The notes below the pieces were generated by a model that saw only the letters and a list, made by a program, of their open reading frames with translations, was not told the DNA's origin and did not search any database. From an uncultured Rikenellaceae bacterium (GTDB taxonomy: Bacteria > Bacteroidota > Bacteroidia > Bacteroidales > VadinHA17), in NCBI GenBank assembly GCA_964435015.1, contig CAYSXP010000006.1, positions 8,079 through 72,078 of the forward strand: a DNA stretch of 64,000 nt. The letters are read 5' to 3'. Below are positions 45,748-58,371 of this stretch, in pieces (the stretch's first letter is position 1; each line of letters opens with the position of its first letter). The translations under genes were made by a program, and so were the position numbers.

Positions 45748-47286
45748 ATGAATGAGGATAATGATGTGCTTTACATTCCCAGACATTACAATTCAATAGA
45801 ATTGTGGAAGGATATTACGGAAGCACAGTGGAACGATGCCAGATGGCAGCAGAGGAACTCAATCCGGAGTGTTGAACAACTTGCAGGAGTGATAGATCTG
45901 AATGATCATCAGAAAAATGAAATAGGCAGAACCATAAAAGCTTTAAGGAGGCAGGGAAAGGAACCATTGCGTATTACTCCTTATTATGCATCCCTGATGT
46001 GTGCTGATCCGTTTCATCCGGTAATGCCTGTGGGAGAAAAACCAAACAAACGCGTTGACCCGGTTTTCTGGCAAAGTGTGCCCACTCCGGCCAATCTGCT
46101 TTTTCCCGATACAGGCGCAGAGGGCGCAATGTCGGAGAGTTCGAGAAGTTACGGTGCGGCATACCAGAGATATCCAAACAGGGTCGCTCTTTTTGTAGCG
46201 GAAAATACCAGTTGTGCATCATACTGTGTACACTGCCAGAGGGCCAAGTCGCTTGATGGCACCGTTGAAGTAAGCACCGCTGAAATCAACAGGGGATTGT
46301 TTTACATAGGATATAACAAAAATATTAATGAAGTTCTGGTTACCGGTGGTGATGCTCTGATGATCAGCAAAAACCGGTTGAAATACATCCTGGAAGAACT
46401 GAGCAGGATACCTCATCTGCGAGTGATAAGGATAGCCACAAGAGTACCGGTGGTATTGCCTATGGCGATAACGGATGATCTGCTGGAACTCATAAATGTT
46501 TCCGCAAACAGATATAACTCCGGTCATGAAAAATATGTGTACTTCATGACTCATATAAATCACTATCATGAGATAACCCGCGAGCTGGCCATTGCTTCAA
46601 AAAAGATCCGGAGTCACGGATTTACAATCCGCAACCAGACCGTCTTGCTGAATCATGTGAATGATTATTACAAAACTCTTGCAGAAACACTCAGAAGAAT
46701 GTTCTGGGTCGGTATCCATCCATATTATTTATTGCAGTGCCATAAGGAGAAAGGAATTGTTCATTTCATTACACCGGTGCAGATCGGCAAAATATACATA
46801 AAGCATCTGCAGGGCTGGATTTCTGGTATAACAATGCCGCGTTATGCAGCCAATATTGAAGGTGGCGGAGGAAAAGTGCTTCTGATGCCTTCAGGGCACG
46901 ATACTCTCGGTGAAGAAATCCATATAGATGAAAAAATCTCTGAGAGCTTTGCGATGGTTTCCACATGGGACGATAAAAAGATATACCGGTATGAATCCCT
47001 GGGAAGAGCTACAAGGGAAGAGTTTGAAGAGGCTGTCAGTCTGATGGATAAATTCATTGGAAGAAAAGGAGTGTTTCTGCCAAAAGTTATTATTGTTGAT
47101 GAAAAGGGAAATCATGTTGAGACCACCAACAGGTCAAAGCTTCCTGTTTTTGCACGACTCAGGAAATCCCAGCTTTTGGGATATGAGATCCATGAAAAGG
47201 ACATGCCGCTGACCAACCCTCAGGAAATTCTTCCCGAGCTTGAAGAACAGTTTGCTGTGTCGAAATATTCCCGGCACGGGAAATGA
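45748..47286 (+). CDS. Divergent KamA-family radical SAM aminomutase with C-terminal extension (substrate unlikely to be lysine)
   Basis: CASYCVHCQR cluster motif, TGGDAL and the GGGGK PLP lysine. It has LLQCHKEKG and AANIEGGGGK where lysine 2,3-aminomutase has QCD and VDAPGGGGK. The tail beyond the core is over 100 aa longer than in the other KamA paralog in this window. The ATG at 45748 is preferred over the TTG at 45736. Confidence 0.8.
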   Translation: MNEDNDVLYIPRHYNSIELWKDITEAQWNDARWQQRNSIRSVEQLAGVIDLNDHQKNEIGRTIKALRRQGKEPLRITPYYASLMCADPFHPVMPVGEKPNKRVDPVFWQSVPTPANLLFPDTGAEGAMSESSRSYGAAYQRYPNRVALFVAENTSCASYCVHCQRAKSLDGTVEVSTAEINRGLFYIGYNKNINEVLVTGGDALMISKNRLKYILEELSRIPHLRVIRIATRVPVVLPMAITDDLLELINVSANRYNSGHEKYVYFMTHINHYHEITRELAIASKKIRSHGFTIRNQTVLLNHVNDYYKTLAETLRRMFWVGIHPYYLLQCHKEKGIVHFITPVQIGKIYIKHLQGWISGITMPRYAANIEGGGGKVLLMPSGHDTLGEEIHIDEKISESFAMVSTWDDKKIYRYESLGRATREEFEEAVSLMDKFIGRKGVFLPKVIIVDEKGNHVETTNRSKLPVFARLRKSQLLGYEIHEKDMPLTNPQEILPELEEQFAVSKYSRHGK

Positions 47287-47323
47287 TTCTTTGGGGGTGT
47301 CTGATCAGCACAGGTCTTTCTCC

Positions 47324-48010
47324 TTATTTACTTGTGTTTCCCGACTGATCAACTGCCACAACATGATAATAATATTCAGGCATGTTGTGAACAGAAATAT
47401 CCCTGAATGAATTCACGATAGTGGTGCCGATCTGCTTTTCCGGAGATATCTCAACCTCAGGTTTCTCAGATCTGTAAATCCTGTAATGGCAGAAGTCTTT
47501 TTCAATGCCCGGATCCCAGGTGAGAAATACCCTGTCGCGGCCCTCATCCATTCTTCGCCCTGCTTTCAGGTTCCTGATTTCCGCAGGAGGATCATCATCA
47601 TACAATGTAGTGTATACCACCAGCGGCTGTGCCGGAACAAGGTCGGAAAAGGAATTATCGAAGATATCAAAGTTATTGATGTAATGGTGGCCTCCGTAAA
47701 TACCCGTTATGCTGTCCATTTTATTTGCGGCCCATTCTATTGTTGGCCAGTATTCGAAAGGAGAGGCATCCGATGCCGGGAGTTCAATATTAAGATTCCT
47801 CGAGTTCAGCTCATCAAAAAACATTCCGTGGATCTTCCTGAAGAAATCCAGGTCTTTTGTCATTGATGTCCACTCTACGGGGGATAGCTCATTGGCCATG
47901 CAGTAGTATGTTATATTGCTGAAACCTTTATTTTTCTTAAGGTATTCGAGATTGTCAACCTCCTTTTTTACAGATTCCGGCTCATTTTTGCCTTTCTTCA
48001 GGCAGTGTTT
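47324..48010 (-). pseudogene. Truncated glycoside-hydrolase gene fragment (clan GH-A-like NE and HxY motifs + C-terminal Fn3-like domain)
   Basis: The frame stays open upstream of the first Met as far as a stop at 48011-48013, reading ...NLEYLKKNKGFSNITYYCMANELSPVEW...GGHHY.... There is no signal peptide or N-terminal half of the barrel, and the frame ends against the tRNA locus. Confidence 0.55.
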
Positions 48011-48141
48011 TCAGAGATGTATTCTTCAGGTTCCGGCAGGTTTCATTTTTTGGTATCGTCGCCAGGCTCCCCGGTTCGAACTCCTCTCCCTTCGCGTTCT
48101 CACCGCGATTTGGAGATGTGATGGCGCCTTGCGGCACCAGT

Positions 48142-48218
48142 TGGTGATTCCGGGGCGATTCGAACGCCCGACCCACAGCTTAGAAGGCTGTTGCTCTATC
48201 CAGCTGAGCTACGGAACC
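48142..48218 (-). tRNA. tRNA-Arg (anticodon UCU), CCA encoded
   Basis: A manual cloverleaf fits: acceptor GGTTCCG/CGGAATC, D arm GCTC-AGCTGGATA-GAGC, anticodon arm ACAGC-CTTCTAA-GCTGT, T arm GGGCG-TTCGAAT-CGCCC, then ACCA. 77 nt. Confidence 0.9.
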
Positions 48219-48252
48219 ATAAATAAAAGAACAATTGTTTTATAATCAAACT

Positions 48253-48355
48253 GGCTGTTGCTCTATTCCCGAAAATCAATCCGTGTCAACGGATTTGATT
48301 TTCGAGGATCCTCGTCCCGACTTGTCGGGAACGGGACCAGCTGAGCTGCGGAACC
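48253..48355 (-). other. Partial duplicate of the tRNA-Arg 5' part (positions 1 to ~32) interrupted in the D-loop by a 70-nt hairpin-rich insert
   Basis: 48337-48355 matches 48200-48218 at 18 of 19 positions, and 48253-48266 is identical to 48186-48199. The intervening 48267-48336 is absent from the intact gene. Confidence 0.7.
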
Positions 48356-49191
48356 AGAATTCAGCGCCCAAAATTACATTTTTTTTCAGCTTCTGCAATC
48401 TTAATCATATGAGAATTGATATAAATCAAAAATCCGGCTTTAACGGGCAGGCTGACCAGCGCCGGTATTCAAACCGGCCTGTGTCTCGCGGCTTTGTGCC
48501 GGCCGGCCTTCCCGACGTGAAATGGCAGTTTGGCACATTCGAATGTGTTATCGGCCTGCTAACTGACGATTACTGAATAATGAGGAATCATTGATCCCCG
48601 GGGCGGTTTGGAAATCGTCGCCGCAATACGCCGGGGCCAGCCCCTGGCCTGAGTCAAAAAACTGATTATTAAAATAATAGATTAACAGCCCATTGTTTAC
48701 CATAAATGAAACAGGGCCTGTTTCGTCGAAATTTTTTCAGCAAAAATTTTTTTCCATAAGAAATGTTACTGTTTTCTTTGATTTTATCTGATTTTATTAT
48801 AAATTTGTTCCTAGCTCATGCTATTGGAATAAGAGGAAAAGGCAAGGGTCGGAATTGAAAATCATCAGGATTGTATTGCAGACATTGACTTTCACATCTG
48901 GAACCTGATGATAAACGCCAGTTTACTAAGGTTCCATCCTTTTATCAGACAGTAGACACGGGAATTATCTCATGAATAAAACCCGCTACCTGATTTTCAA
49001 GACCGCCCTTTTTCCTCTTTTCTGTCTTGCTGCAAAAATTCTGAACTTTGTCAGGTTTTCTAATCATGTCCGGTACATTGGTCATTGGATTAATTGAACC
49101 AATAATTCATTATTGGGAGGTTTGCAGAAAAAAATTATCTTTGATCGAAGTTAACTGCCTGTTGTGAGCTTATTCAGGTGTAAAGCAAGCA

Positions 49192-57840: not shown

Positions 57841-57929
57841 TTCTTAAAATCTGTTCTCATTTGAGCTGCCGGGAAAACTGGTTTGGAATCAGGTGACGAC
57901 TCTGGCCTTTATTTCCCGAAAGCCTGAAT

Positions 57930-58135
57930 ATTTCTTTTTCTGGCAGGTCTTCTGACTTGTCCCGGTTTTAAAAAGCCTTCCCATTCCTTTCAGGCAGAAA
58001 CAGTGGCAGGTATTTTTCAAAACCTTCATCACGCAAATGGTGACGGGGCATCACAGCAGCGGGTACTGTAGCGGATTTGCACCGCTTTCCCTTTTCATTA
58101 TAACGATTATGAGCCGTTATAACACCATCAGGGGC
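57930..58135 (-). promoter_or_regulatory. Cobalamin (B12) riboswitch
   Basis: The minus strand reads AAAAGGGAAAGCGGTGCAAATCCGCTACAGTACCCGCTGCTGT ... GCCACTG ... AAGTCAGAAGACCTGCCAG (B12 box). A P2-like hairpin GTTATAACG/CGTTATAA(T) lies upstream. The boundaries are approximate. Confidence 0.85.
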
Positions 58136-58371
58136 CAAAGGTAAATAAATTTACGGACAGGGCAAATGTCAGGAATGAACAGTCACCGGCATGACAGCTG
58201 GATGTTAAGTATTCCAGAGTAGTTTCCGGTTTTCACTGAAAGTGAGTGATGGAGGAAATGCCATACGGATTCAGGTCCGGGTACGGCAGCAACCCGATAT
58301 GATGGTTTAACTGATTCTCCGCTTTTTTCAGCAATGATTGCGGAAGCTGTATCGATGTTGTTTTCGGGGGG

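Follow-up and report, generated by a model that had tools for sequence, protein, structure and literature searches.

Why should an intact tRNA gene be preceded by a broken copy of its own 5' part, and what keeps such a copy in place? This question is raised by a stretch of 64,000 nucleotides of an uncultured Rikenellaceae bacterium (contig CAYSXP010000006.1, positions 8,079 to 72,078), hereafter called the window, whose coordinates we count from its first letter. The sole tRNA called in it by ARAGORN and Rfam is an intact tRNA-Arg(UCU) gene (TCT in the DNA) of 77 nt, with the CCA encoded, at 48142-48218 on the minus strand. Upstream of it lies a unit made of the 5' part of the same tRNA, split in the D loop by a 70-nt insert. 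Judged by its sequence, the unit belongs to a large family of leader repeats of Bacteroidota, which are partial copies of the cognate tRNA carrying a UCCCGA-loop-UCGGGA hairpin.

The two copied segments were delimited with a repeat finder and with blastn-short within the window. The first one, GGTTCCGCAGCTCAGCTGG (48337-48355, minus strand), reproduces tRNA positions 1-19, that is the acceptor 5' strand, the D-stem 5' strand and the D loop up to its GG. It matches 48200-48218 at 18 of 19 positions (E = 0.003), the only mismatch being a T to C change at tRNA position 8 (U8 to C). The second one, ATAGAGCAACAGCC (48253-48266, minus strand), reproduces positions 20-33, namely the remaining D loop, the D-stem 3' strand, position 26, the anticodon-stem 5' strand and the first base of the anticodon loop, and it is identical to 48186-48199 (14/14, E = 0.013). 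Both segments are collinear, on the tRNA strand and beside their source gene, and together they match it at 32 of 33 positions. The copy terminates at position 33; the rest of the tRNA is absent from the unit. The insert between the segments (48267-48336, minus strand) measures exactly 70 nt, is made of two hairpins and occurs once in the window, and an A+U-rich spacer of 34 nt (48219-48252, minus strand) leads from the unit to the tRNA. A first-pass annotation, made by a model reading the letters alone, had correctly seen the split partial copy, its interruption by exactly 70 nt, its stop at the anticodon loop and the single mismatch at the conserved U8, but had put the tRNA 35 nt away. The otherwise invariant U8 is a C in the units of three arrays: the window (48348) and two of the loci compared below, L014 and L009.

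The RNA read from 48240-48360 on the minus strand folds at -49.1 kcal/mol (z = -5.3), and none of 200 shuffled sequences folds as well. In the minimum-energy fold, hairpin 1 (48307-48338, minus strand; 13 pairs, GGUCCCGU.CCCGA / UCGGGACG.GGAUC) takes in G18 and G19 of the D loop, GGAUC pairing with GGUCC and thereby lengthening the stem. At its tip a pattern search finds the module TCCCGA-CAAG-TCGGGA (48315-48330, minus strand); the general form TCCCGA-N3-7-TCGGGA has this one match in the window, with 0.02 expected by chance. Hairpin 2 (48268-48306, minus strand; CUCGAAAAUCAA.AUCCGU-UGAC-ACGGAUUUGAUUUUCGGG) directly abuts hairpin 1, is opened by the CUCG that comes after the GGATCC stretch, and is flanked by runs of A and U. 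It counts 17 pairs and one bulge, more than the imperfect stem of about 12 bp described at first. The module reported earlier as a hairpin is thus one indeed, while the GGATCC palindrome listed beside it as a third self-complementary element is shared between hairpins 1 and 2 and forms no hairpin of its own; likewise the TCCCG...CGGGA said to bound the insert is present at its termini, as parts of hairpins 1 and 2. The whole self-closing unit extends over 48251-48357 (minus strand). Its predicted closing helix pairs CUGGUU (48357-48352) with AGCCAG (48256-48251), and the D stem GCUC/GAGC is predicted to be retained (48346-48343 with 48263-48260), so that closing helix, D stem and hairpins 1 and 2 make up a three-way junction.

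Ahead of the unit one reads a promoter of the Bacteroidota type (48369-48398, minus strand), with a -33-like TTG (48398-48396), a spacer of 19 nt and the -7 box TAATTTTG (48376-48369), which ends 13 nt before the start of the unit and perfectly matches TAnnTTTG, the Bacteroides-type -7 consensus. The closest relatives (L145-L154, whose BioG is 90% identical) have an identical 37-nt block, TTGCAGAAGCTGAAAAAAAATGTAATTTTGGGCGCTG, as their only promoter-like element ahead of the same tRNA, and the window unit begins at the same distance from the promoter, 13 nt, as does the leader of these relatives (the register of L145). The 34-nt spacer 48219-48252 contains no TAnnTTTG consensus and no terminator scored on the sense strand, and an internal promoter in this spacer was dropped from consideration for want of that consensus. 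Since the promoter lies upstream of the unit and there is no other, the unit is likely to be transcribed as the 5' leader of pre-tRNA-Arg. The genes flanking the locus (BioG, BrkB, KamA, PCMT, Lnb and a DUF5106/DUF4369 thioredoxin-like protein) point to Bacteroidota.

Some further observations concern this region. On the plus strand, hairpin 2 (48278-48305) followed by TGATTTTCGA scores as a site resembling an intrinsic terminator, which could stop antisense transcription into the promoter region; the terminator scan scored hairpin 2 on that strand only, and the sense strand has UUGAUUUUC after a G-C-poor stem. Between the tRNA promoter and BioG there is an unusually long non-coding stretch of about 0.8 kb (48400-49190) with G+C-rich inverted repeats, of which the closest relatives conserve no more than some 60 nt at the promoter end, and inside which all the Logan contigs with an identical BioG stop. 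A sequence at 48676-48690 on the plus strand, ATAGATTAACAGCC, agrees in inverted orientation with tRNA positions 20-33 (12/14); it lies 320 nt upstream of the promoter and is either a chance match or the relic of an inverted unit.

Is the unit unique to this genome? We scanned genomes for an interrupted D arm next to AACAG while leaving the insert unspecified, so that the scan was blind to the hairpin. Nine loci were returned, eight of them in metagenome-assembled genomes (MAGs) of Bacteroidota (Bacteroidales, Rikenellaceae, Chitinophagaceae) and the ninth a tandem tRNA gene pair in a Candidatus Uhrbacteria MAG. In seven of the eight Bacteroidota MAGs the match consists of tandem truncated tRNA copies standing between a TAnnTTTG promoter and a tRNA-Arg(TCT); the eighth, L010, is a homologue of the insert-bearing unit of the window. 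The TCCCGA/TCGGGA stem recurs in 7 of the 8 arrays, which had been found without specifying it. Altogether the module is present in the units of eight MAG loci (L006, L007, L009-L012, L014, L157) and of at least 120 metagenome contigs, the latter retrieved with a pattern of D arm plus module. Of the 158 metagenome matches listed, 139 lie outside predicted tRNAs and directly 5' of the cognate tRNA, which among these matches is Val-TAC, Ala-GGC/TGC/CGC, Arg-TCT/CCG, Asn-GTT, Met-CAT, Lys-TTT/CTT, Thr-TGT, Gly-GCC or Ile-GAT. In the loci fetched, 230 of 244 occurrences of the module sit in a tRNA-like context. Of 70 arrays, 37 are preceded by a TAnnTTTG at no more than 70 nt, and in most of these the box stops 7-26 nt short of the first unit.

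The commonest form, which we call class B, is composed of tRNA positions 1-26, TCCCGA-N4-TCGGGA, positions 44 to about 56, and 12-20 A+T-rich nucleotides. An array holds 1-5 units, L006 having five identical copies of 73 nt. When the flanks of the units are aligned to the cognate tRNA, the hairpin replaces positions 27-43, that is the anticodon arm, almost exactly in about 100 units belonging to 8 amino-acid families. Most units end at tRNA positions 50-60, that of the window at 33. A minority has the hairpin in the D loop, as in the window, the first unit of L010, L032, L061, L042 and L069; the units of L008 carry a different hairpin there, CCTACC/GGTAGG, and like the window's they end after the anticodon-stem 5' strand, AGTTTGA coming next. 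The hairpin may also lie in the T loop (L097) or replace positions 25-35 (Asn units). Its loop is free in length and sequence, with 3-7 nt between the half-sites, and keeps traces of the cognate anticodon in 11 of 73 units, as compared with 5.0 +/- 2.0 in shuffles (12 of 2000 shuffles reach the observed value). Only five variant stems were available for a count of G-U against A-C changes, in a sample selected by the exact stem.

The window unit shows what characterizes this family: its place in register between promoter and tRNA, the same strand, a 5' copy devoid of the 3' portion of the tRNA, the module and the self-closure. The 70-nt insert itself is rare, being present in two genomes (the window and L010), and the underlying principle is widespread. 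The copy count that the first-pass annotation had called for comes out accordingly: one copy in the 64-kb window and one diverged homologue in L010. Rfam, at the gathering threshold and at E <= 10, recognizes in this locus and in seven related ones the tRNA and no other family, and a full-text search of the literature found no description of such repeats. Some units, in which T arm and acceptor 3' strand are present, are nearly full-length (L026, L039, L068, L087, L090, L110), and ARAGORN reports them as 'tRNA-???' or tRNA-Stop(tta). Such units could give rise to mature tRNA-like RNAs without anticodon, and they will contaminate tRNA annotations.

Does the structure matter at the level of RNA? 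In the Rikenellaceae MAG L010 the same insert-bearing unit, diverged, is the first of at least four units. In the alignment of these two units every substitution within the 39 predicted pairs preserves pairing: two pairs are compensatory from the window to L010 (U-A to C-G in the outer closing pair, U-A to C-G in the apical pair of hairpin 2) and one change yields a wobble (C-G to U-G in hairpin 2). The other differences fall in loops (CAAG to CUUG, UGAC to UGAU), in a bulge, in a one-base insertion and in the spacer. This conservation of the stems is suggestive of a constraint acting on the RNA. The units of L008, which belong to class A, close by a like helix with different bases; in it an A stands where the tRNA has a G, which makes a Watson-Crick pair out of a wobble.

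In folded class-B units, the region 3' of the tRNA-like part has a tendency to pair with the 5' strands of the acceptor stem and of the D arm. For 58 distinct units (near-full-length units excluded, mononucleotide shuffles, the contigs not being independent lineages) we computed the energy of the duplex which the 5' part forms with the tail of its own unit. On the sense strand it lies below that of shuffled tails, with a mean z of -1.02 (p = 5.5e-7), while on the antisense strand of the same units the mean z is -0.16 (p = 0.30); the paired sense/antisense comparison gives p = 7.7e-7. The sense-strand complementarity relies on G-U pairs. A complementarity which is confined to the sense strand and depends on G-U pairs is what one expects from selection on the sense transcript, not from a DNA palindrome.

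We then have to ask how stable these units are. The first-pass annotation had suggested comparing the same locus in relatives; it is not identical there, and relatives show no unit, two units, at least four, or a remnant. At the locus linked to BioG the window has one unit of the D-loop type and the syntenic MAG L012 one class-B unit, and the closest relatives L145-L154 have only a decayed remnant of about 60 nt, starting in the same register, which keeps ...CGGGAA...GAGC.A.A..CAGTT... and has lost the D arm and the insert. At a paralogous locus linked to LeuCD, L010 has at least four units and L157 (92% protein identity) two; L159 (91%) and L161 (77%) are devoid of units, and their tRNA stands exactly at the position of the first unit of L010 and L157. 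Since relatives differ in the number of units while the tRNA is intact, units are gained and lost fast, in register and without harm to the tRNA, and they are dispensable. Such a turnover fits the expectation for direct repeats 70-140 nt apart. Two arrays (L010, 1272-1371; L148, within the array of downstream repeats described below) contain runs of exactly 100 N, in all likelihood scaffold gaps due to the repeats, and the copy numbers given there are lower bounds.

All this leads to the explanation which we consider the probable one: the window unit is a cis-encoded pseudo-tRNA leader unit, a self-folding module produced by tandem duplication in register, between the tRNA's own promoter and its mature 5' end. 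Units would appear and vanish by unequal recombination or slippage between direct repeats of the tRNA 5' part, an origin suggested by the in-register geometry and by the tandem arrays. The unit would be transcribed as part of the 5' leader of the pre-tRNA and removed when RNase P matures the tRNA. Meanwhile the leader RNA would fold on itself and lock the duplicated 5' half away from the 3' half and the anticodon stem of the genuine tRNA, as the compensatory changes and the sense-strand-specific complementarity suggest. Self-folding would explain why a private G+C-rich hairpin replaces the anticodon arm, why the tails are complementary to the 5' part, and why the T arm and acceptor 3' strand are missing; with these the unit would be a processable, possibly toxic tRNA mimic. 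As to the invariant sequence of the stem, it may be due either to a trans-acting factor binding the hairpin or to one old module spread by recombination, since one stem is found in at least 9 tRNA families, in three different loops and in downstream repeats of tRNA 3' ends. The unit is not essential, and any positive role, in tRNA yield, in processing or as a decoy, is hypothetical.

Several points weigh against this explanation. We infer transcription through the unit only from the promoter and its position. The covariation of the 70-nt unit comes from two sequences, and near-perfect palindromes can gain compensatory changes at the DNA level by template switching. The window unit folds alike on both strands (-48.4 kcal/mol for the sense strand, -49.5 for the antisense strand), hence the argument from strands rests on the family and not on the window copy. 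The metagenome contigs were selected by the exact hairpin and are not independent in phylogenetic terms. The remnant or absent units of close relatives (L145-L154; L159, L161) imply that selection for any one unit is weak. Finally, insulation of the tRNA from its copy leaves unexplained why one and the same stem sequence serves everywhere.

Other features around the tRNA deserve mention before the alternatives are weighed. Directly 3' of tRNA-Arg there is a conserved element (48045-48141, minus strand; also in L006, L100 and L145-L154) made of a GNRA hairpin, GGTGCC-GCAA-GGCGCC, then CGCG-GTGAGAA-CGCG, then GGAGTTCGAACCGGGGAGCCTGGCGACGA; it has no match in Rfam. In L148, L149, L151, L152 and L006 this element alternates in tandem, with a period of 146 nt and in 1 to at least 3 copies, with a hairpin-bearing unit that is composed of a TCCCGA...TCGGGA hairpin and a copy of the tRNA 3' end starting with the T loop (the X-Y repeats). 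In L150 (502-2050) and in L010 (1-1068) the orthologous tRNA-Arg has a tyrosine-integrase island inserted precisely at its 3' end (GGAATCACAAAT|A...), and several metagenome contigs end at the tRNA-Arg locus. Synteny is broken at 47286-48142 of the window, which marks a rearrangement breakpoint: in the closest relatives KamA precedes a transposase (L135) or a glycoside hydrolase and a TonB receptor (L139), not the tRNA. An open reading frame of 191 aa at 47324-47899 matches no Pfam family and no exact record, and is possibly a gene fragment. Farther away, a cobalamin riboswitch is recognized at 57925-58144 (minus strand; 89.7 bits against Rfam RF00174).

The first-pass annotation had put forward three explanations, each of which turns out to be right in part and none fully. 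One was a decayed tandem tRNA invaded by a miniature palindromic element similar to MITEs or REPs. There is indeed a tandem partial duplication, and the hairpin is a recurrent, portable module, yet the insert is not dispersed and its stems are kept by compensatory changes. As a dispersed element it finds no support: it has one copy in 64 kb and no further copies in the databases scanned. TCCCG...CGGGA termini are present, and the flanking GG or ATA is not duplicated. An exact 21-mer of the insert had no match in 185,579 species genomes, among which the source species evidently does not figure; the insert-boundary pattern had none in JGI metagenomes, the pattern of D arm plus hairpin none in viral contigs, and blastn none in plasmid and phage collections. 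In a neutral version of this idea, a partial tandem duplication of the tRNA with palindromic insertions would simply be decaying, the palindromes being maintained at the DNA level with nothing happening at the level of RNA. The units being absent or decayed in the closest relatives, the copy number of 0-5, the mutations gathered by the distal units of L009 and the like folding of the window unit on both strands would all agree with it. It does not account for a compensatory pair in the closing helix, some 100 nt apart and so beyond the reach of local palindrome correction, nor for the complementarity of 5' part and tail in 58 units, confined to the sense strand and dependent on G-U, nor for one stem being shared by at least 9 tRNA families and turning up in 7 of the 8 arrays retrieved with no demand for it; and close direct repeats should vanish fast, yet arrays are common. 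We regard it as unlikely. The option of a structured RNA built on a tRNA scaffold came closest, in that the unit is a structured leader element with RNA-level signatures; a stand-alone RNA gene is not supported, the unit being a dispensable cis leader module of a family. One may carry this option further and see in the units a functional regulatory RNA, acting in trans or in cis, either as decoys or platforms for a factor recognizing the UCCCGA stem or through mutually exclusive helices (the tail against the next 5' part) that control folding and maturation of the tRNA. An invariant stem with free loops, the one-for-one replacement of an arm in most units, tails complementary to a sequence that recurs in the next unit and in the tRNA, and the spread of the family through the phylum speak for such a role, although no conserved protein gene lies alongside, the units are dispensable in close relatives, and the hairpin placement in Asn and some other units does not preserve the structure. 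We assign it a clearly minor probability. In its strongest form, to which we grant the same tentative standing, there would be a phylum-wide class of regulatory RNAs, anticodon-less modules in 1-5 copies per leader, whose stem is read by a dedicated factor and whose tails gate tRNA folding and RNase P maturation in relay, or which are decoys for tRNA-binding enzymes or toxins, the copy number being a fast-evolving dial.

The remaining explanations appear much weaker. The remaining proposal of the first-pass annotation, the recombination scar of an element targeting the 5' half, fails on the geometry: no element lies between the copies, the tandem units are in register, and the real islands sit at the tRNA 3' end. 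An att-site scar of an integrase was rejected on the same grounds (a 5' segment is copied, the 34-nt spacer has no open reading frame, the island junction of relatives is at the 3' end). More generally, the unit could be a product of site-specific recombination, an attL-type scar or a miniature integrative element with TCCCGA/TCGGGA as the recombinase core. This has in its favor that tRNA-Arg is a hot spot of integration, with an integrase island at its 3' end in L150 and L010, that copies of the tRNA 3' end, with a hairpin ahead of them, are repeated downstream in L148, L149 and L006, and that the hairpin is shaped as two inverted half-sites around a short spacer. Nevertheless only 16-50 nt separate the copies, without cargo, the spacer of the half-sites varies in sequence and in length (3-7 nt), no units were found in viral, phage and plasmid collections, the polarity is 5' where tRNA integrases are known to duplicate the 3' part, and the arrays are in register with the promoter; such an origin is most improbable. 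Hardly less so is a leader attenuator, in which hairpin 2 would be an intrinsic, perhaps bidirectional terminator limiting read-through into the tRNA or antisense transcription of the plus strand. The terminator-like site of the plus strand (48278-48295 plus TGATTTTCGA) and the UUGAUUUUC following the stem on the sense strand suggest it, and against it stand the terminator scan, which gave no score on the sense strand, the hairpin 2 of L010, which precedes three more units and the tRNA, all silenced if it terminated, and the class-B units, the great majority, which have no hairpin 2. As for an error of assembly or sequencing, which the first-pass annotation had kept in mind, assemblies do break at repeats, Logan contigs ending 220-325 nt upstream of BioG, and there are gaps of 100 N in the arrays of L010 and L148. 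A separate MAG, L010, nonetheless carries a diverged homologue of the insert-bearing unit with structure-preserving changes, and the family is present on at least 120 contigs, so that an artefact has a negligible probability.

A few other identities were considered and rejected. The unit is not a functional tRNA gene: the ARAGORN and Rfam check which had been recommended calls only the intact tRNA-Arg and nothing at 48253-48355, where RF00005 finds no match even at E <= 10, and the copy ends at position 33. It is not a tRNA intron either: the 70-nt insert lies in the D loop, its removal leaves positions 1-33 only, and Rfam recognizes no intron family in it. A group I intron would have a core exceeding 200 nt, in the anticodon loop. 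A CRISPR-like array would have spacers, and there are none; a type III antitoxin array would have a toxin gene, and there is none. A derivation of the stem from the anticodon stem of the initiator tRNA was dropped as well, since the two strands are the same but the loop closes the opposite end.

How do these units compare with known systems? The repeats of the E. coli tyrT operon (rtT RNA, tpr region) reportedly carry the last 19 nt of the tRNA and lie 3' of it. Like our units they are tandem partial tRNA copies within a tRNA operon, and they are co-transcribed, released by processing and attributed to unequal recombination. They differ in having no conserved hairpin substitution and in being restricted to one locus of one lineage, instead of preceding the tRNAs of 9 or more families in a whole phylum. 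The window unit, being upstream and made of a 5' segment, was rejected as a repeat of this type; only the X-Y repeats of relatives fit, and those found downstream of tRNA-Arg in L148, L149 and L006 are the closer analogue. The tRNA integrases are said to duplicate the 3' part of the tRNA, at the att-site borders of genomic islands. Such duplications resemble the window in placing a tRNA fragment beside an intact tRNA, and the orthologous tRNA-Arg is used by islands in L150 and L010, but they involve the 3' part and kilobases of island with its integrase, whereas the window shows the 5' part, 34 nt and a register with the promoter, and the family is often tandem. With REP/BIME sequences and MITEs the units share a short conserved palindromic module with a variable loop, found at many sites, and the insert of the window is bounded by an inverted TCCCG...CGGGA; unlike them they are not dispersed, have no target-site duplication and no visible link to a RAYT or a transposase, and often replace the anticodon arm exactly.

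The anticodon arm is also swapped for another helix in RNAs built on a tRNA scaffold, such as the synthetic scaffold of Ponchon and Dardel, the mimics of the YrlA or Y-RNA type and the tRNA-Other of Bacillus cereus. Most of our units, that of the window included, differ by having neither T arm nor acceptor 3' strand, so that they give no L-shaped mimic and no such processing; they are leader segments, not genes. The arrays of type III toxin-antitoxin systems (ToxI-like) are also tandem short structured RNA units expressed from one promoter, but pseudo-tRNA units derive from the downstream tRNA, have no adjacent toxin gene and repeat with a period of 70-146 nt. Each of these precedents thus shares one trait with the units and differs in others, and the family fits no named one; the nearest kinds are tRNA-operon repeats and structured leaders.

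Bacterial tRNA leaders are usually regarded as short and unstructured. Here a whole phylum appears to set structured, anticodon-less tRNA copies with one conserved hairpin ahead of the real gene, with the practical effect of broken assemblies and confused tRNA finders. If the units are merely kept harmless, they would be a clear natural case of selection against RNA misfolding between repeated domains, and also a new way for tRNA loci to vary rapidly in structure. Should a factor read the hairpin, the units would represent a new level at which tRNA supply is controlled, or a new decoy system, in Bacteroidota, including dominant gut bacteria, and would be a natural counterpart of the synthetic tRNA scaffold.

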